The position numbers and the translations under genes were made by a program. Positions 1 to 60,005 of a stretch of 64,000 bases of DNA are shown piece by piece; the first letter of the stretch is position 1; each line of letters begins with the position of its first letter. Origin of the DNA: Escherichia coli (GTDB lineage: Bacteria; Pseudomonadota; Gammaproteobacteria; Enterobacterales; Enterobacteriaceae); NCBI RefSeq assembly GCF_030384885.1, contig NZ_CP128613.1; one strand, given 5' to 3'. The notes beneath the pieces were generated by a model, which was not told where the DNA came from, searched no databases, and was given only the letters and a program-made list of their open reading frames with translations.

Positions 1-256
1 CAATAACCCGCGTCATCCGTACACCCAGGCGCTACTCTCCGCAACGCCGCGCCTGAACCCGGACGATCGCCGCGAGCGCATTAAGCTCACCGGTGAACTG
101 CCAAGCCCGCTCAATCCACCGCCGGGCTGCGCGTTTAACGCCCGCTGTCGTCGGCGCTTCGGCCCCTGCACCCAGTTGCAGCCGCAGCTAAAAGACTACG
201 GCGGTCAACTGGTAGCTTGTTTTGCTGTTGATCAGGATGAAAATCCGCAGCGGTAA
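1..256 (+). CDS. dppF: Dipeptide ABC transporter ATP-binding protein DppF, C-terminal fragment (5' end outside window)
   Basis: Open frame from window edge ending at TAA 254-256; position convergent with yhjV matches known dpp-yhjV neighbourhood; C-terminal peptide consistent with oligopeptide ABC ATPase tail. Confidence 0.75.
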   Translation, partial: NNPRHPYTQALLSATPRLNPDDRRERIKLTGELPSPLNPPPGCAFNARCRRRFGPCTQLQPQLKDYGGQLVACFAVDQDENPQR

Positions 257-285
257 CTCACAAAACCGGGGCCATGCGCTCCGGT

Positions 286-1557
286 TTACTCAATCAGCTT
301 CAACAGTGGCGACAAGCATAACAAAATGCCGTACAGCAGAATCATCCAGGCTTTAAACCCGCGAAGTTTTTCCAGTTGTGAGACTTTTGAGATCAGGAAA
401 AACGGAATGAGGCACGACACAATGCCATATAACGGGCTTCCCAACTGAAAGAACACCAGCACCGATACACGAAACGAAACCCAAATCGTCAACGTAATGA
501 CGATAAAAGCGCAGATCGCCAGAGTCAGCATACGTGAGTTAATTTTCTGGGTATCAATAATTCGGCTTAACAGATTGAGAATAATGCCTTTAATGGCCTC
601 GTGGAAACCGAGATAAATGCCAAAGAATGCGGTCAGTACGGCAAAGATATTCAGCACCGTAGAGGTGATATGAATGATATGCCCAGGGATCACCTGCGCG
701 GCCAGTGCCAGTGCCGAGATATTTTGTTCAAAGGCAGAAACGGCTTCTTCGTGGCTAATTGAGAAGGTAAACGAAAAGGCAAAAAACAGGATCACCGCGA
801 TGAGCGTGACATAACTAATTCGGTGGGTGCGCAGCGCGAGCCGGGTTGCCAGTACTTTATCCGCTTCCCGTTTACGATAGGCAATATTCATTGGGTTAAG
901 TACCTGAATAAATACCGCAGAAAAGAAGCAAAAGGGAATGGTAAGCAGGACATCGCGGAAAAAGACGGAGGCTTGCGGGAAGGCGGTTATATTGGCGAAA
1001 TTCCAGTGCGGGATCATCGCAAAACCGAACACGACGATAATCCCTACTTTGACCACCACCATTGGCCCGGAAATCTTAAACAGTAATCGTTCACCACCAG
1101 ACGCAATTGCCACCAGTACGGCGAAAATGGCGACTTTATAAAGTAGAGATTGTGAAAGATCGGCATCGGTTAAACCGAAGGTTTTCAGGTACGAGGCGCT
1201 GTCGAAAACCACGGAGAGAGAGTAGATAAAAATCCCGTGGATAATCATCAAAAAGTAGATAACCCCGAGGAAAATTCCCCAGTTCTTCCCCAGGTAATGA
1301 CTGATAATATCGGTGTAGTCATTACAGGAATCGCTTTCAGAAAGGGTTTTTAAATAAATGTCCTGCACTACCCAGGTGGCAGGATAAGCAATGATCGCTG
1401 CGGTAATAAATACCCAAATTCCCTTCAAGCCAATTTGTACTGGCATCAGCACGGTTCCGGCACCAATCGCCATGCCTATGCATAATAAAACCCAGCCGAA
1501 GTCGTAGCGTGTAAACGGCATTTTCTGATCGTGTTTCGGTAGTGTGTTGTGCTGCAT
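286..1557 (-). CDS. yhjV: Inner-membrane transporter YhjV (HAAAP-family amino-acid permease-like), 423 aa
   Basis: ORF track 286..1620; start trimmed to internal ATG ([15 protein letters not shown]...) to give the 423-aa product; highly hydrophobic multi-TM sequence. Confidence 0.85.
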
Positions 1558-1915
1558 AAAGTCCTGTCCAGAAAGAAGTCGGCCTCGCAAAAATGAATAA
1601 ACCCAGTTTCTCTTGCGCAACAGGTGGAGAAGTCGAATACGCAGTATGTAAAAAATGAGGCAACAGATTCACTGGGGAGGTCGCGAGGAGGCGCAATTCT
1701 ACAAAATTGCGCATTTCACTACCAGTCTGGAGTCAGCCCGGATATGAACTGCAACTATTGCAAATAAAGAAATTAAGCTGGAAGGCATCACGCAATGAGG
1801 AAGATTGCCGGGTGCTGACGGTAAAAAGCAATCGTAAAAGCAGCGGCAAGCCGGAAAGGTTCCGGTGAGGCGCAATGTTGCGAGGGCTTAATCCCTGGTG
1901 GCATTGGTTGCTGGA

Positions 1916-1984
1916 GAGAGAAAACCCCCGCACGTTGCAGATATTCACCTGACAACATCACGGGGGCTAATCTTGAACCTAGAC
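1916..1984 (-). ncRNA. rdlD: Rdl-type antisense sRNA (antitoxin of Ldr), copy 1; ends approximate
   Basis: Minus-strand sequence 'GTCTAGGTTCAAGATTAGCCCCCGTGATGTTGTCAGGTG...CTGCAACGTGCGGGGGTTTTCTCTC' matches recalled Rdl RNA; lies antisense in ldr 5' leader. Confidence 0.5.
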
Positions 1985-2032
1985 CACTCAAGAATAGCCG
2001 CGAAACGTTGTCATTACAACACAGGCGGCTAT

Positions 2033-2140
2033 ATGACGCTCGCAGAACTGGGCATGGCCTTCTGGCATGATTTAGCGGCTCCGGTCATTGCTGGCATTCT
2101 TGCCAGCATGATCGTGAACTGGCTGAATAAGCGGAAGTAA
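2033..2140 (+). CDS. ldrD: Type I toxin Ldr (35 aa, MTLAELGMAFWHDLAAPVIAGILASMIVNWLNKRK), copy 1
   Basis: 35-codon ORF at C-terminus of track ORF 1898..2140; sequence matches Ldr family small hydrophobic toxin; followed by hairpin+T-run. Confidence 0.8.
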   Translation: MTLAELGMAFWHDLAAPVIAGILASMIVNWLNKRK

Positions 2141-2190
2141 CGTGTCAGACGGGCGTCAGGCTGCCGTAATGGCAATTTGCGCCCGGACCA

Positions 2191-2222
2191 GGCCGCAGGG
2201 ATAAAACTCTGCGGCCTTTTTC
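2191..2222 (+). terminator. Rho-independent terminator of ldr copy 1
   Basis: GC stem ggccgcag / ctgcggcc followed by TTTTT. Confidence 0.6.
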
Positions 2223-2396
2223 GTAAGAAAAATGCAACGGTTGCAAGCGGATAATATTCTGCGGAATGCGCAGCACAGAGTGAAGAAGTGATGGATTCCG
2301 GAACAGAAAAACAGTCGTAGAATCAGCGGCAAGCCGGAAGGGTTCCGGTGAGGCGCAATGTTGCGGGGGCTTAATCCCTGGTGGCATTGGTTGCTG

Positions 2397-2465
2397 GAGA
2401 GAGAAAACCCCCGCACGTTGCAGGTATGCACCTGACAACATCACGGGGGCTAATCTTGAACCCAA
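2397..2465 (-). ncRNA. rdlD: Rdl-type antisense sRNA, copy 2; ends approximate
   Basis: Second copy of the Rdl-like sequence (GCATACCTGCAACGTGCGGGGGTTTTCTCTC on minus strand). Confidence 0.5.
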
Positions 2466-2515
2466 ACAACTCAAGAATAGCCGCGAAACGTTGTCATTAC
2501 AACAGAGGCGGCTAT

Positions 2516-2623
2516 ATGACGCTCGCAGAACTGGGCATGGCCTTCTGGCATGATTTAGCGGCTCCGGTCATTGCTGGCATTCTTGCCAGTCTGATCGTGA
2601 ACTCGCTGAATAAGCGGAAGTAA
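2516..2623 (+). CDS. ldrD: Type I toxin Ldr (35 aa), copy 2 (differs at 2 residues from copy 1)
   Basis: MTLAELGMAFWHDLAAPVIAGILASLIVNSLNKRK at C-terminus of track ORF 2381..2623. Confidence 0.8.
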   Translation: MTLAELGMAFWHDLAAPVIAGILASLIVNSLNKRK

Positions 2624-2673
2624 CGTGTCATGCGGGCGTCAGGCTGCCGTAATGGCAATTTGCGCCCGGATCA

Positions 2674-2705
2674 GGCCGCAGGGGTGAAACTCTGCGGCCT
2701 TTTTC
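2674..2705 (+). terminator. Rho-independent terminator of ldr copy 2 (possibly bidirectional with bcsG end)
   Basis: ggccgcag...ctgcggcc hairpin followed by T-run, 5 nt from bcsG stop. Confidence 0.55.
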
Positions 2706-2709
2706 GTTC

Positions 2710-4389
2710 TTATTGCGGGTAAGGCACCCAGTCGCCGCCGTTCAGGCGAACGTACGGTTTATCCTGGTATTGAATAACTACTGCATTTGAGTTCTCGGAG
2801 ACCGGTGCTGTTTGTGGCAACCCACTGGTGAGTTTTTTCCAGTCAACATTGTCTTCGGTGAAAATCTTACCATCAAGAACGCGAACCACCAGATCGGAGA
2901 TAGCCAGGAAGCTGCTCGGTTGGTTGATGACAATCGGTGCCCCCTGATGTGGTGCCTTCATGCCGAAGAATTTCACCCCAACGGGGACGTCTGTGATAGA
3001 CGGGCTAGGGATATCACGTAGGCCAGATACCTGCATTCTGTCGCCCTTCAGCGCGCCACCGTGTTCCGGCACCACTACCACCATCACTTTACGACCCGAT
3101 TTCTCCAGTTCAGTAAAGAAGGCGTCCAGCTCATCAAAGAATTTCTGCGCTCGCGCTTTGTAATCCGCTGTTTTGCTGACGCCCGGATAATGGTTGCCGT
3201 CATGCAGTGGAAGCGTGTTGTAGAACGTGGCACTACGGCTGTTTTTATCTTTTTCGGTAACGTCCAGCCAGCGGTTAAGCACGGCGGTATCGTCATAAAC
3301 CGGCGAACCATCAAAGCCCAACAAAATAACCGGCAGATTTGTTTGATCCATCAATTCGGTCTGCATGCCGCCATTTTCGCGAACTTCTTTCAAAAAACCG
3401 CCGAACTGGCCGTTATGTCCCATCATCAGGTGCTGGGTAAAGCCCAGTTTCGACAGGTTATCAAACAGATAGCAGTCGTTATTTGCCGGTTGATACAGAT
3501 TAGTGTGCGAAGTCTGCCCGCAGCTGGCGCGCAGTAAACGGATCGCTGCCGGGCCACTGTAGGAGGTGGCGGAGTTAAAGTTCTTGAACTCAATATCGAA
3601 ATGCGACCACAGCGGATGCGACATCAACCCGGCGGCTTCAATATCCGACCAGGAAAGCGAACAGATATTAATCACCAGTAGTTCAAATGGCTGAGCATCA
3701 GCGGGCAGCGAAGACGGGAAGGTCGATTTACGTTTCGCCTCCGCGTTATAGAAATTATTCAGCCAGGCGTTAAGGTTCGCCGTTGTTGGCGGTGCAGTTT
3801 GTGCGGGCATATCACCCACTACCGGTGCGCCACCCGTCGCCGCAACGGTTGCCGCTGCGTTACCACCCGTCGTTGTTACAGTGGTCGTCGGTTGACCGGC
3901 AGGCCACAAGGAGAAACTTGGTCCCGCCAGGGTAAGTACGTTCAGCCATAGCAGAATGGCAACCACAAAAACGGTAATGCGAATCCATTGTGATAGGAAT
4001 AACCAGGCCACTAATAAAACAAAAATGGCCCCAATCATCTGCCAGTTAATAAAGCGTGTGACAAGGTCGATTAAATAATCGGTACTGAACCCCGCCACCT
4101 GCGAACCCTGGCTCATTATGCTTTCCGGGCCAGGCAACCAGGTGTCATGCCAGAACAAAGCAAAGCCGATCGGCAGGGCAATCCAGTGGCGTAAGCGATG
4201 CAGGCTGTAGCGCGGAATGGGCATCAGCAGAAACGCGGCAAACACCAGATTGAGGAGCGGATGGAAGTTAAGATATCCCGCCCACAACAGGCCGAACTTA
4301 ACCAGAAAATAGAAGTTCCAGCCGGAAAGGCCGCGCCAGTATTGCCAGAGGGAAGAAGGCATGGCGGTATTTTGCGTAAATTGAGTCAT
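2710..4389 (-). CDS. bcsG: Cellulose phosphoethanolamine transferase BcsG (559 aa)
   Basis: ORF track; N-terminal TM helices plus alkaline-phosphatase-like periplasmic domain; size and position (bcsEFG operon) match. Confidence 0.9.
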
Positions 4390-40297: not shown

Positions 40298-40507
40298 TTA
40301 ATTTGATCGCCTGAACAGGAATGTTTGGGCGATTTTTATTACGACAATAAAGTCTGTTTTTAATATTATCATGTTAAATGTTTATATTATAAAAAGTCGT
40401 TTTTCTGCTTAGGATTTTGTTATTTAAATTAAGCCTGTAATGCCTTGCTTCCATTGCGGATAAATCCTACTTTTTTATTGCCTTCAAATAAATTTAAGGA
40501 GTTCGAA

Positions 40508-41908
40508 ATGGACCAGAAGCTGTTAACGGATTTCCGCTCAGAACTACTCGATTCACGTTTTGGCGCAAAGGCCATTTCTACTATCGCGGAGTCAAAACGA
40601 TTTCCGCTGCACGAAATGCGCGATGATGTCGCATTCCAGATTATCAATGATGAATTATATCTTGATGGCAACGCTCGTCAGAACCTGGCCACTTTCTGCC
40701 AGACCTGGGACGACGAAAACGTCCATAAATTGATGGATTTGTCGATCAACAAAAACTGGATCGACAAAGAAGAATATCCGCAATCTGCAGCTATCGACCT
40801 GCGTTGCGTAAATATGGTTGCTGACTTGTGGCATGCGCCTGCGCCGAAAAATGGTCAGGCCGTTGGCACCAACACCATTGGCTCTTCCGAGGCCTGTATG
40901 CTCGGCGGGATGGCGATGAAATGGCGTTGGCGCAAGCGTATGGAAGCCGCAGGCAAGCCAACGGATAAACCTAATCTGGTGTGCGGCCCGGTACAAATCT
41001 GCTGGCATAAATTCGCCCGTTACTGGGATGTGGAGCTGCGTGAAATCCCTATGCGCCCCGGTCAGTTGTTTATGGATCCGAAACGCATGATTGAAGCCTG
41101 CGACGAAAACACCATCGGCGTGGTGCCGACTTTCGGCGTGACCTACACCGGTAACTATGAATTCCCGCAACCGCTGCACGATGCACTGGATAAATTCCAG
41201 GCCGACACCGGTATCGACATCGACATGCACATCGACGCCGCCAGCGGTGGCTTCCTGGCACCGTTCGTCGCCCCGGATATCGTCTGGGACTTCCGCCTGC
41301 CTCGTGTGAAATCGATCAGTGCTTCAGGCCACAAATTCGGTCTGGCTCCGCTGGGCTGCGGCTGGGTTATCTGGCGTGACGAAGAAGCGCTGCCGCAGGA
41401 ACTGGTATTCAACGTTGACTACCTCGGTGGTCAGATTGGCACTTTCGCCATCAACTTCTCCCGTCCGGCGGGCCAGGTAATTGCACAGTACTACGAGTTC
41501 TTGCGCCTCGGTCGTGAAGGCTATACCAAAGTACAGAACGCTTCCTACCAGGTAGCTGCCTATCTGGCAGATGAAATCGCCAAACTGGGGCCGTATGAGT
41601 TCATCTGTACCGGTCGCCCGGATGAAGGCATCCCGGCGGTTTGCTTCAAACTGAAAGATGGTGAAGATCCGGGATACACCCTGTATGACCTCTCTGAACG
41701 TCTGCGTCTGCGCGGCTGGCAGGTTCCGGCCTTCACCCTCGGCGGTGAAGCCACCGACATCGTGGTGATGCGCATTATGTGCCGTCGTGGCTTCGAAATG
41801 GACTTTGCTGAACTGTTACTGGAAGACTACAAAGCCTCCCTGAAATACCTCAGCGATCACCCGAAACTGCAGGGTATAGCCCAGCAGAACAGCTTTAAAC
41901 ACACCTGA
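40508..41908 (+). CDS. gadA: Glutamate decarboxylase alpha GadA (466 aa)
   Basis: ATG at 40508 ([19 protein letters not shown]...); PLP-dependent decarboxylase; adjacent to gadX, hence gadA rather than gadB. Confidence 0.95.
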
Positions 41909-53556: not shown

Positions 53557-54123
53557 TTATTTGACCAGCTCAGGTGTTACTTGACTCACCGCATTGGTGT
53601 AGTAAGGCGCGCCCCAGCCCGGTTCCGGCCAGAATGCACCATAGCCGTAATCCCACAGGTTATAGGTGGTATTAACCACTTCTCTCAAATGCCACACCTG
53701 GATGCCCTGCATATTCACTTCCAGGAAGTTATACGGGACTTTATTGATAAAGCCAGGTTGTTCACCCTGAATGGTACCGAGGATGGTAACAAAGTGATTA
53801 CGATAGTTCACTGGATCAAGGAAGCCGCTTTGTCTGGCGAGCAGTCGGCCCTGATAGTTGGCTTCAATATCAGGCTTCGCATAGCTATCCAACGGTAATA
53901 CAGCGATTTCTAACAACGTATCCGTTTTGCCATTGATAACGTTGATAACCTTCCCGCCAAAGCGCGCTTGTTGACCAACATATAACCCCGGCTGGTTATG
54001 AACAGCAACAAAACTTTTTTGAATATCAGGTTGGTTATTGCCTTTGATATTTTGCGGAATTGAACTACATGCGGCAAGCAAAAATGAAAGGCTGAGGATG
54101 AGTGCACCTTTTGTCATGTTCAT
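53557..54123 (-). CDS. slp: Outer-membrane starvation lipoprotein Slp (188 aa)
   Basis: ATG at 54123 (MNMTKGALILSLSFLLAACSS lipobox) inside track ORF 53557..54342. Confidence 0.9.
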   Translation of the reverse strand: MNMTKGALILSLSFLLAACSSIPQNIKGNNQPDIQKSFVAVHNQPGLYVGQQARFGGKVINVINGKTDTLLEIAVLPLDSYAKPDIEANYQGRLLARQSGFLDPVNYRNHFVTILGTIQGEQPGFINKVPYNFLEVNMQGIQVWHLREVVNTTYNLWDYGYGAFWPEPGWGAPYYTNAVSQVTPELVK

Positions 54124-54368
54124 GTTACTATCCTTATCAACAAATATTAAAACCATAATAGATATTTCTTTATAGTTTTCATCTGATTCTGAGGCGATAT
54201 GCCTGATAGTAACGTAAACCTGTCTGATGTTTATATCCATTCTGTTTAGTTTAATTCTGTTAATTTTGGGGCGTGACATGAGTATCCATCGCCCCATAAA
54301 ATAGCCTTTTTTTAAAGGTACATAAAATCTATTTTTATTCAATGCTTATAAAGCGCTAATGTTCAATA

Positions 54369-55592
54369 TTATGGGATTATATTCTGGTAATGATTTGATA
54401 AGCGAATTCTTTTGCCAGTTGATATTTCTATTTCCACCCCATAATTTATAGTTTTTTCATCAGGTAGCGATCTCTTTAAATAAGGTGCGTATGACATTTT
54501 TTTAGGATGAAACGTATCGTGTTGAAATATTTCGAATTGATATTCAGACATTTGTGCCCATGTTTGAATTTTATTGTATCGGGAGAGTGTCGTAAAGGCT
54601 TTAACTTGCTTATAACATTGTTTTTGGAATTCTTGCTGATATTTTAATATGTCGTTGTATGAAAGATTGGTTATCCTGGCCTCTAAAAACTTAATTATCG
54701 TCGAAGCAACTTCAGCTTTTGCTCGTAAAAAGTTGTCATTAATGGTTAATAATGTTGAAAATAAACCTTCAATTTGTTTGTCAAGATATTGTTCATCTTT
54801 ATATAATTTATGGGTAGGGTGTTCCTTATGTGAAAAAATAGTGTCACATAAATTTGCGTCAGTGAAATTTATATTAAGTAGATCTTCGAAATAAAACCTT
54901 GACAAGGTTAGAACGAACCCGGACAGGTTCTGTCCTGTCATATTGAAATCAATAAAGTTGGTTCCGGCAAAGACTTTCATTCTGTTTTTATTTTCACTGT
55001 GCTCAATATATAACTTCGTCATTTTTTGATACAGGCTTTGAATATCTTTTATATTAGTTGGTAAGTCAGCTCGTTGTTCAGCAATAAAATTAGTATCTGA
55101 AAACATGGTTTGGACACTGAATGTTATGGGTATTCCCTCTTCTACGCTAATTTTAGTTATGATTGCCTTGTCGGGTTTAGGATTAGCGACAACAATGATT
55201 CGACATTCAGCACTTTTGTTCTTTTCGTATCTAATGTTATTAATCTGATTAAGTATTGATTGTGTCTGTTGCGTAAGTGGTGTCGAACTTATCGTTTCAA
55301 TGTTATTAATAAGTTTTACAAGTTGAGCCACAACTTTTGAGTAGTCTGCATTTGTATATGTGGTGTTCGTGTGGCACGCATTAATTTGTTGGAGTTGTTG
55401 TTGCGCTAAATCAAATTGTTCAGCGTTATATCCTTCTTCAGACAATGAAAAATTAATGGGTTGCTGTTCTTCCTGATTATCACAAGGCCACATCGGTGTG
55501 TTTGGTGTTTTAATATTGTCGGTATCTGTTGTGCGGTTATAAATATCGCCGTGATATGTATTTATCATACCTGGGGTAAAGTCAATTGACAT
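54369..55592 (-). CDS. yhiS: YhiS-like protein, intact (407 aa), pentapeptide-repeat-like central region
   Basis: ORF track; AT-rich; position between slp and ars region corresponds to yhiS, which in K-12 is split by IS5; no IS seen here. Confidence 0.7.
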
Positions 55593-56172
55593 AACATTCC
55601 TTATTGTTCATCTATTTCGCTAAATTTTTGCAAATCGGAGAATTAGAACAGGAATGGATTTTCTTCTACGCGGAAATAAACACAATGCGTCATATCTTCC
55701 TGATATAATTACCTTTAACTTCCCTTTCATTTCCACCCGGTAATATTTGTGTATAAAAAAAGGGCAGTGATAGTATCGTAAAGGAAAACATTAACAACTA
55801 TCAAAAAGCGCTCATTTTAAAAAGTTATGATGTTCTCCGATAGTGTGTGAAGTGATATTTTTGTGATGTTTTAGATGTGTAATAATGAACCAGGTTAAAG
55901 TGTATTTAAAAATGTGTTGTATTGGCGACTGAAATCTGCCCTTTAAAAGGGGGGATAGCACTGAGACAAAGAGGCATTGCTTCTCCGATAAAATGTCAGA
56001 GAAGCATGATTGCGTGGTGATTGTCGATTGATGACTTACTGACGGATCCGTCATCATTCTCAAAGCATTAGTTAAGTTATTTGTGATTTTTAAGGATTAT
56101 CCTATCTATGATTTTCTACTCAGAAGGATAAGGCACTCACAATGCTCCTTATAGTTTACTGCTGGCATCTAT

Positions 56173-57186
56173 TTAAAATAGCATTTGAGTCAAATAGCCC
56201 ATCAAGATAGCCATACCTAAGATAACCGTCAGGAATGCAACTATCATCGGTATTCTGAACATTGATTTAAGTAATATCACTTCCGTCAGACTTGCGCCGG
56301 CACTGCCGATGATTAATGCCATTAATGCTCCCAGACCCATTCCTTTTGTCATCAGAACAGATGCCAGAGGGATAACCGCCTCTGCCCGGATATACAGCGG
56401 GATTCCGACAACGGCGCTCAATGGGATGGCGAAGGGATTATCTGCCCCTGCATGAGCGGCAATCCACGCTGAGGGAATAAAGCCATAAATAAAAGAGCCT
56501 ATTAATACCCCTAACAAAAGATATGGCAGTACATCTTTAAACTGTTGCAACGCATCTTTGGTGGCTAGTTTTATGGGATTAATACTTACCACAGCTTTGG
56601 TACTGCAACAGTTTACTACCGGTTTCTCAATGGCTTTAGCCGCTGGACTACAGCAACTCACTTTTATTGGCGTATATGTCGTCCCCGGCGAAGTTTTGGC
56701 TGGAGAGCAACAATTTGCTGATGAGCTTTTACTGGCAATGATATGACGTTCAAATCTCAGAGAATCCAGGATAATACTGGCAAGTACGGAGACGCCGGCG
56801 GCGATAATCGCGTACAACAAGGTAACTTTCCAACCAAAGGTCACCCACATTAACCCGACGATAATGGGATTAAGTAACGGTGAAACAAATAAAAAAGTGA
56901 GAGTCGGACCAAACCCGGCTTTCGCTGACAACAATCCACGTAGCATGGGTATTGTCGAGCAACTACAGAACGGGGTAACGGCTCCCAACAGAGCAGCCAG
57001 GAGATAGCCTCTCCCTTTTCTGGCCCCCATCATCTGCTGGATTTTATGGTCTGGCACCTTTTGTCTTATCAGGCTGACACCGGCACTAATCACCATAAAC
57101 AGCAAAGAAAGCTCGACGGCGAGAAACACAAACATCTCTGCGGCATCTTGCAGCATCGCAAGCCAACTACTCATAAGTAACCTCAT
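56173..57186 (-). CDS. DUF318/ArsP-like permease with TPFCSCS motif and Cys-rich loop (337 aa)
   Basis: ORF track; multi-TM; motif GAVTPFCSCSTIPM; loop with three CC pairs; divergent from an ArsR-family regulator. Confidence 0.65.
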   Translation of the reverse strand: MRLLMSSWLAMLQDAAEMFVFLAVELSLLFMVISAGVSLIRQKVPDHKIQQMMGARKGRGYLLAALLGAVTPFCSCSTIPMLRGLLSAKAGFGPTLTFLFVSPLLNPIIVGLMWVTFGWKVTLLYAIIAAGVSVLASIILDSLRFERHIIASKSSSANCCSPAKTSPGTTYTPIKVSCCSPAAKAIEKPVVNCCSTKAVVSINPIKLATKDALQQFKDVLPYLLLGVLIGSFIYGFIPSAWIAAHAGADNPFAIPLSAVVGIPLYIRAEAVIPLASVLMTKGMGLGALMALIIGSAGASLTEVILLKSMFRIPMIVAFLTVILGMAILMGYLTQMLF

Positions 57187-57281: not shown

Positions 57282-57602
57282 ATGCAATTGGAAGAGGTCG
57301 CTAAGGCACTGAAAGAGTTAGGTCATCCGACCCGTTTGTTCATATTTAAGCATCTGGTCAAAGCGGGGGAACAAGGGTTGCCGGTCGGTGAGTTGCAAAA
57401 GCAGCTTGGGATACCCGGCTCTACACTCAGTCACCATATTTCAGCACTGGTATCGGTAGGGTTGGTCAAACAAAACCGTGAGAGTCGGACGCTGATGTGT
57501 GTTTCGCAATACGCAATGCTGGAAGCGATAATTGAATTTTTATGTGAGGAGTGCTGCGTAAACAGCAAAACAGATGGCGAAGGAGCCACGAAGAACAAAT
57601 AA
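57282..57602 (+). CDS. ArsR/SmtB-family metalloregulatory transcriptional repressor (106 aa)
   Basis: HTH signature (LGHPTRLFIFKHL...VGELQKQLGIPGSTLSHHISAL) and C-terminal CEECC cysteine cluster. Confidence 0.7.
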   Translation: MQLEEVAKALKELGHPTRLFIFKHLVKAGEQGLPVGELQKQLGIPGSTLSHHISALVSVGLVKQNRESRTLMCVSQYAMLEAIIEFLCEECCVNSKTDGEGATKNK

Positions 57603-59758: not shown

Positions 59759-59911
59759 ATTGCGCTCCTGATTGTTGCAGGTAGTGTCTCTCTTCGAAGC
59801 GGATAAGTCAAAAACATATATGTTTTAACGAATGTGTAAGTGCAGAGGAAGGTAATAGGTGTGAATTAAGCGTTGGGTGTTCATTTGAAAGGAAGTCTGA
59901 ATCAGGATGTA

Positions 59912-60005
59912 AAAAAACCGACTTTGCGTCGGTTTTTTACTCTTCAGCCAGAGTTGGTGGCTCTGGCTGGAGTGAGAATGCCCACATCTAACGGTTCAAT
60001 ACTAT
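59912..60005 (-). ncRNA. agrB: AgrB-like sRNA (antisense regulator of dinQ); ends approximate
   Basis: Repeat unit 'ggctctggctggagtgaga-tgcccacatctaac' whose minus-strand transcript is complementary to the dinQ leader copy at ~60395-60430; ends in hairpin ccgac-gcaaa-gtcgg plus T-run. Confidence 0.45.

Follow-up and report, generated by a model that had tools for sequence, protein, structure and literature searches.

The window analysed here is a stretch of 64,000 nucleotides of Escherichia coli DNA (contig NZ_CP128613.1 of assembly GCF_030384885.1), and our subject is yhiS, a gene that it carries at the ars-proximal margin of the acid fitness island, with the ars genes on one side and slp-dctR on the other. 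In K-12 yhiS is a pseudogene (yhiS_1/yhiS_2) split by the insertion sequence (IS) IS5/insH. In the window the locus holds a single open reading frame (ORF) on the minus strand, with an ATG start, 407 codons and a stop, preceded by a good ribosome-binding site. An earlier note on this DNA, whose quoted peptide lies within the ORF, had described yhiS here as a continuous 407-aa frame with no IS nearby, had taken it for the likely ancestral state of the locus and had seen something like pentapeptide repeats in the centre of the protein.

Orthology with K-12 yhiS and the IS5 insertion

54369..55592, minus strand: yhiS coding sequence (ORF listing; ortholog of K-12 yhiS), with a soluble product of about 47 kDa and a predicted isoelectric point of 6.0
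55598..55602, minus strand: Shine-Dalgarno sequence AAGGA, 6 nt 5' of the ATG, read off the sequence
54848..54851, minus strand: TTAT, corresponding to TTAG (the IS5 target) in K-12, at codons 248/249 within an ANL(C/G)D pentad, placed by the junctions and the excision in a K-12 derivative (L002)

The order arsRBC - yhiS - slp - dctR is kept in every genome examined, with yhiS oriented as slp-dctR. In the K-12 derivative the match to the window ORF is split: nt 1-744 align at 95.6% nucleotide identity, IS5 follows, and nt 742-1224 align at 92.5%, all of it between arsC and slp and both pieces collinear with the window ORF and free of gaps. Because of this synteny and of the identity to both pieces, the window ORF is the uninterrupted ortholog of K-12 yhiS, as the earlier note had it. 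The IS5 ends in K-12 abut a duplicated TTAG, a 4-bp target duplication whose target (nt 742-745) lies inside the repeat region described below. Removal of IS5 and one TTAG copy in silico leaves 1224 nt with an open frame of 407 codons. Since this excision restores the full frame, the uninterrupted form is the ancestral one, as the note had thought likely, and the K-12 form is derived from it by one insertion, the only lesion in K-12 yhiS. In the window itself the IS5 terminal repeat GGAAGGTGCGAATAAG is found nowhere in the 64 kb with up to two mismatches, and the arsC-slp interval contains no transposase-sized ORF.

The split K-12 pseudogene, ECs_4376/Z4907 of O157:H7 and WP_000020596.1 of E. 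coli B are the same gene at the same locus. The window copy is full length, whereas that of K-12 is interrupted at codons 248/249 and that of O157:H7 Sakai is cut to 371 aa by a frameshift in an A run. Neither the locus nor its intact form is new: the exact window protein is already in public databases as an uncharacterised or hypothetical protein and is found on 337 contigs, including E. coli TW10509. The nearest complete genome, 2013C-4282 (NZ_CP027579.1; L001 6001-7224), has a yhiS only one base away from that of the window (C672T). In RefSeq this copy is called a 'frameshifted' pseudogene ending at nt 1117 by the Prokaryotic Genome Annotation Pipeline (PGAP), yet its ORF is open over 407 codons; we reject the flag as an annotation artefact, which probably stems from the use of the 371-aa O157-type protein as the reference.

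When the ORF was compared by megablast with 5426 complete E. coli genomes, a chromosomal match was found in 5416 of them and never a match on a plasmid. The allele of the window is rare, with only 2 of these 5416 genomes carrying it at 99% identity or more. All source names given for the listed homologs are E. coli or Shigella, and a HMMER scan of 1.84 billion representative proteins returned a single full-length YhiS cluster together with gene fragments. A bacterial scan with one genome per species used two exact peptide patterns, which may miss divergent orthologs (the HMMER scan fills this gap for identities below 50%), and its sole match was a contig of 409 bp, covered 0.77x, from an Ensifer assembly. 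The last 93 residues of YhiS are encoded on that contig (L007; NZ_SRXN01000179.1, Ensifer sp. MPMI2T) with an identity of 85%, and it looks like E. coli contamination. As far as these searches reach, yhiS appears to be an accessory gene restricted to Escherichia and Shigella, and it was probably acquired horizontally. Its G+C content is 32% overall; the fraction is 0.32-0.35 across the ORF and the 580-bp spacer upstream of it, against 0.45-0.54 in the flanks.

The pentapeptide module and the remainder of the protein

54762..55043, minus strand: complete predicted pentapeptide module (residues 184-277), with, in this order, a helix that caps it (184-198), an 'LY...G' linker, the ten pentads and another linker
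54828..54977, minus strand: the ten consecutive pentads (residues 206-255), found by shuffle test, hhalign, PDB profile search, Foldseek and low dN/dS (see below)
55428..55592, minus strand: N-terminal region (residues 1-55), polar, rich in Thr, Asn and Pro, of net charge -7, with no signal peptide and very low AlphaFold confidence

Ten pentads follow one another in a single register over residues 206-255, each centred on F, L or M. A run of ten occurred in none of 20000 shuffles in a period-5 test, and the centre residues are hydrophobic in 12 of 12 alleles. Outside Escherichia, HMMER/phmmer searches of the same 1.84 billion representatives matched five proteins only (E 3e-5 to 4e-4), all of them pentapeptide-repeat proteins that themselves pass the Pfam Pentapeptide model PF00805 with E-values of 1e-37 to 5e-80. 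Alignment of YhiS with a true pentapeptide-repeat protein by hhalign gave a probability of 93% over residues 208-259, and a PDB profile search placed Rfr32 (2f3l, E=0.0076) and TL15 (3n90) on top. It is because of the shuffle test, the HMMER matches and the PDB profile and hhalign results that we assign the region to the pentapeptide repeats. Structure prediction offers a weaker line. In the AlphaFold2 model of residues 176-300 a helix spans 184-198 and is succeeded by beta bridges at 5-residue intervals; the block-mean predicted local distance difference test score (pLDDT) is 62-79 over residues 176-255. The input alignment of this model had been seeded with true pentapeptide modules, which makes the result partly circular. 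Among the Foldseek matches listed for this model in the PDB, 49 of 50 are pentapeptide-repeat proteins or engineered solenoids of pentapeptide type, including NP275, Rfr32, MfpA, AlbG, Qnr, NleL and SopA, all of them weak (E 0.024 or higher) and dependent on the same seeded alignment, as is the superposition on Rfr32 at 0.8-0.9 A over 43-44 residues.

The earlier note was right about the pentapeptide-like centre to the extent that the ten pentads withstand several tests; the repeat is short, however, and the Pfam model that the note had proposed as a check does not accept it. The window protein scores 12.3 bits (E=0.13) against PF00805, under the gathering threshold of 20.2 bits. PF00805 is the sole Pfam family matched by 11 of the 12 alleles, and all 12 stay under the threshold (best E 0.037). 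Judged from the sequence comparisons together, the pentapeptide signal in YhiS is real despite this score.

Like Rfr32 (2f3l), NP275 (2j8i), TL15 (3n90) and other PF00805 proteins, YhiS has tandem pentads with L, F or M at the centre and N or D before it. It differs from them in having only 10 pentads, in that K, F, Q, E or I, which are not canonical there, often stand two positions ahead of the centre, and in that the repeat makes up about 12% of the protein, the rest being orphan. Modelled on the known fold, the ten pentads would build about 2.5 turns of a right-handed quadrilateral beta-helix. The best matches outside Escherichia are three large metagenomic proteins (P0153, P0155 and P0161), with an identity of only 21-26%. 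Residues 190-278 of YhiS resemble one complete unit of their 'QLYSTxSYxDKxLxG + ~10 pentads' module, including both LY...DK.(L/I).G linkers. In the metagenomic proteins this module is repeated many times and accompanied by PATR (autotransporter) or dockerin domains such as secreted and surface proteins typically have, whereas YhiS carries the unit once, between unrelated flanks, and lacks a signal peptide.

Pentapeptide repeats of this type also occur in the DNA-mimicking proteins that protect topoisomerases (Qnr, MfpA, McbG, AlbG), and YhiS could be thought to belong with them, as MfpA, AlbG and QnrB1 are among its Foldseek matches and the local root-mean-square deviation from MfpA is 1.0-1.6 A over about 50 residues. 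Qnr and MfpA (2bm5, 2xtw) have about 30-40 pentads in at least 8 coils, a helix that fills nearly the entire protein, and dimerise into a rod of about the length of a DNA segment. The Foldseek targets of this type are 180-213 residues long. YhiS, with only 10 pentads (about 2.5 coils) and about 350 residues of non-repeat sequence, carries a net charge of only -1 over residues 201-260, taken as a sequence-level proxy for the surface, and no partner toxin or antibiotic genes lie near yhiS in the window. We consider a function of this kind extremely improbable.

The remainder of the protein, about 300 residues outside the module, has no detectable relatives beyond Escherichia and Shigella, and for residues 1-55 the homolog searches likewise found none outside the YhiS family and Escherichia. 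YhiS is hydrophilic (grand average of hydropathy -0.55), and no membrane helix is predicted since the maximum hydropathy over 19 residues is only 0.9. Searches of the whole protein against Pfam and NCBIfam gave no family at threshold; weak matches to DUF5894, PorH and CLZ were dismissed as inconsistent between alleles. An origin in a defence system or a prophage was rejected as well, PADLOC matching no family and the best PHROGs match having E=0.25.

Selection, allele diversity and recurrent inactivation

54833..54838, minus strand: T6 run (T7 in K-12-like alleles), where a -1 frameshift truncates the frame at codon 282 in seven genomes
54497..54503, minus strand: A7 run (A6 in O157:H7 Sakai), where a frameshift gives the 371-aa ECs_4376, which lacks the conserved C-terminus

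Intact alleles from E. coli B, STEC409 and two metagenome or assembly loci diverge from the window by up to 23% of nucleotides and keep 407 or 410 codons. In a simulation, none of 5000 copies with 181 or 275 random substitutions stayed open, so the yhiS ORF is not open by chance, natural alleles just as divergent having kept the frame. For all ten pairs of intact alleles the ratio of nonsynonymous to synonymous divergence (dN/dS) is 0.26-0.43. The excess of synonymous changes is significant in the three inter-class pairs tested (p=1e-3 to 1e-9) and reaches p=0.06 in the near-identical pair STEC409/P0069, where dN/dS is 0.37 over only 15 changes. This ratio and the synonymous excess are the reason for which we regard the frame as maintained by selection. 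Between the same genomes arsC, slp and dctR have a dN of 0-0.009 and a dN/dS of about 0.05 or less, against a dN of 0.045-0.21 for yhiS; the gene is under purifying selection that is far weaker than that on its neighbours. Constraint is also uneven along the protein. It is strongest over codons 201-320, which cover the repeat and the stretch that follows (dN/dS about 0.15-0.25), while for codons 321-400 the ratio is about 0.8-0.9 in comparisons with classes II and III, falling to about 0.4 with the allele of E. coli B.

The alleles of E. coli fall into three or more deep classes, with about 94%, 76% and 62% protein identity to the window. Mosaics between the classes exist; one of them (P0045) equals class II over residues 1-200 and is nearest to the window's class over residues 261-320, which indicates that yhiS alleles recombine within the gene. 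At one locus (L003; L003/L004 8001-9233) slp and dctR are 100% and 99.4% identical to the window, and yhiS, of 410 aa, is only 77% identical in nucleotides and 62% in protein. The spacer upstream of this allele is 75% identical, and the hyperdivergent segment ends sharply near the yhiS stop codon. Across other strains the identity of the upstream spacer is 75-92% where that of slp is 99-100%.

At the same time, yhiS has been inactivated independently in many lineages. The lesions seen include IS5 in K-12, IS1 in SCU-172, -1 slips in the T run and in the A run, +2 and +1 insertions, nonsense codons and a deletion of 914 bp. When 60 of the 5416 genomes were sampled at even spacing, 23 had a span of 1224 nt, a count by length in which nonsense mutations may be hidden, 21 had a span of a length not divisible by three, 4 were K-12-like, 11 were B2-like and 1 carried IS1. 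The intact gene is thus the minority state in this sample, about 60% of the copies being broken or shortened, a point that the earlier note had missed. Slips in the T run and the A7 run are the two commonest frameshifts seen in other genomes. The T run appears to be a slippage hotspot, with the -1 frameshift present in strains A11, EC1908157, O111:H2 08-3342, MS10495, GCM74-1-1, YZLc4-1 and 08_4358. Clusters of the 371-aa form occur on several allele backgrounds (P0030, P0046, P0055, P0058), which may reflect recurrent slippage or recombination. Copies that are already frameshifted have gathered secondary lesions (a stop at codon 105 in O111:H2, a stop at codon 44 in 08_4358, a second frameshift in GCM74). 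The 914-bp deletion leaves about the first 379 nt of yhiS in B2 strains such as 83972. In the latter (L011) the annotation shows no gene but arsC between dinQ and what is left of yhiS, arsR and arsB being apparently gone, and the whole ars-yhiS segment seems to be eroded in this lineage.

These losses make it necessary to ask whether yhiS is a decaying remnant without present function, which in the window is still open only for the reason that its lineage has not yet been hit, the dN/dS then reflecting past constraint. At least eight different inactivating lesions, the lack of an in-frame full-length span in about 62% of the 60 sampled genomes and the secondary lesions speak for it, and so do a dN/dS 5-10 times that of the neighbours and the near-neutral ratio of codons 321-400 against classes II and III. 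It is more difficult to reconcile with this explanation that three classes separated by a dS of 0.3-0.6 keep 407 or 410 codons free of stops, which random change did not achieve in any simulated copy, that codons 201-320 are clearly constrained, and that even the close pair STEC409/P0069 retains its low ratio, albeit at p=0.06. On balance we find the explanation by decay unlikely, while giving it real weight.

Fast, mosaic and allele-rich evolution is typical of host-interaction genes, and YhiS might be a substrate or effector of type III secretion, through the locus of enterocyte effacement (LEE) or the second E. coli type III secretion system (ETT2), with a beta-helix that binds a host protein as in EspX or PipB2. 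The architecture is similar, with central degenerate pentapeptides encoded by an AT-rich gene in the chromosomal backbone. The N-terminus of YhiS is polar and has no Sec signal, EspX1 likewise stays under the Pfam pentapeptide thresholds, and the beta-helix domains of NleL and SopA appear among the Foldseek matches. However, hhalign of the YhiS profile against EspX1 of Sakai (ECs_0025) gives a probability of 2%; EspX1 has no sequence relationship to YhiS, and no support for membership in the EspX family was found. In contrast to known effectors (EspX, PipB2, NleL and SopA were compared), YhiS has no HECT-like domain and its distribution does not follow the lineages with type III secretion: yhiS is intact in the laboratory strain E. 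coli B, which we take to lack LEE, while the LEE-positive O157:H7 Sakai carries a frameshifted copy and O111:H2 a broken one. Full-text searches for yhiS, Z4907 and ECs4376 returned no report of secretion and no functional study, only mentions as an 'unknown gene' or a pseudogene. A secreted effector is in our opinion improbable.

The same diversity could also be read as that of a polymorphic protein that takes part in antagonistic interactions, be it with hosts, phages or competitors, and not as that of a fading relic. Diversifying or balancing selection would then keep the three recombining classes, the T and A runs would act as crude switches for on/off states or truncation, and the protein would bind its target through its one pentapeptide unit, similar as this is to modules of secreted and surface repeat proteins. 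We mention this with little conviction, at or slightly below the level at which we hold the effector.

Regulation, neighbourhood and proposed role

55593..56172, no strand assigned: presumed promoter spacer, AT-rich, 580 bp, G+C about 0.35, with a divergence between strains as great as that of the gene
54124..54368, no strand assigned: spacer of 245 bp between the yhiS stop and the start of slp (53557-54123)

In K-12 the yhiS region is reported to be a high-affinity StpA/H-NS site (bioRxiv 10.64898/2026.02.10.705075), and the arsC/yhiS spacer to be an H-NS-bound 'promoter island' (PMC3661553). A promoter scan of the upstream spacer in the window gave 12 sites against 10.2 expected from shuffled sequence, hence no excess.

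On the same strand yhiS is followed by slp and dctR. It lies directly upstream of them in the same orientation, the 245-bp spacer contains no predicted intrinsic terminator (0 terminator-like sites), and the synteny is universal among the genomes examined; yhiS could for these reasons be a member of the acid fitness island, co-expressed with slp-dctR and serving survival in acid or in stationary phase. The published work points elsewhere. Overexpression of YdeO in K-12 induces slp and dctR but not yhiS (PMC4222967), although the gene is disrupted there, and a comparative study treats Z4907 as an 'unknown gene' bordering the island and not within it (PMC9729726). No GAD box with up to 3 mismatches was found near yhiS, a search that would miss degenerate boxes, and yhiS is lost in most lineages while slp is 99-100% conserved. 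Membership in the acid response is about as improbable to us as secretion. The only GAD box in the 64-kb window is a perfect one of 20 nt, TTAGGATTTTGTTATTTAAA, at 40409-40428, a short way upstream of the ORF 40445-41908 (presumably gadA).

On its other side yhiS is neighboured by an ArsP-family permease, an ArsR/SmtB-family regulator and arsC. The permease (ArsP_1 family, 56173-57186, minus strand) and the divergent regulator (57282-57602, plus strand) lie between arsC and yhiS. K-12, E. coli B and O157 Sakai lack this pair; it is present in 2013C-4282, STEC409 and one further locus (L005), where an IS110-family transposase adjoins it. It looks like a variable arsenic-related insertion beside the arsRBC operon. 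Rfam found no RNA family within or adjoining the yhiS ORF; the sole match noted is the AgrB antisense RNA at 59909-59991 (90 bits), which in the annotation of related genomes belongs to a type I toxin locus, dinQ-agrAB, located between gor and arsR.

We hold, with moderate confidence, that yhiS in the window is a real and intact accessory gene for a soluble pentapeptide scaffold, silenced by H-NS/StpA and useful in certain niches. The binding function is the most uncertain part of this picture. The short and rigid beta-helix of 2.5 turns might serve as a protein-binding surface, by analogy with the general role of pentapeptide modules, and because of that surface YhiS would be a non-enzymatic adaptor. 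The gene would normally be kept silent by H-NS/StpA in this strain as well, would be useful only in some niches and may be dispensable. Weak purifying selection, deep recombining alleles and independent inactivation in many lineages fit such an adaptor. The reality of the gene, its orthology to K-12 yhiS, the pentapeptide module, the narrow taxonomic range, the weak constraint and the recurrent loss all come out of the comparisons above, whereas we infer how the flanking regions fold, that the protein serves in binding and that it is silenced in this strain.

Several points weigh against this scaffold. The high rate of loss is equally compatible with yhiS having no current function, and the 23 full-length spans in the sample may include further broken copies. 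The Pfam model rejects the repeat at its threshold, the AlphaFold2 model of the module was seeded with the fold that it returned, and a full-length AlphaFold2 model built on the 12-allele alignment has a pLDDT of 37 and is unusable, which leaves about 85% of YhiS with no structural assignment. Finally, the expression data come from K-12, where yhiS is already broken.

What is added here is a modest gain in annotation rather than a discovery. The assignment of a domain, one complete pentapeptide unit with its capping linkers, is not in the precomputed Pfam data for the listed homologs. Added as well are the proof that the IS5 insertion is the only lesion of K-12 yhiS and the population picture of a gene, as it appears restricted to Escherichia, with deep mosaic alleles and many inactivations beside a nearly invariant slp. 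Genome annotation can profit from the result, as the 'frameshifted' flag that PGAP puts on the open ORF of the nearest genome shows. So can those who use yhiS as a neutral site, and the study of gene birth and decay in H-NS-silenced islands.

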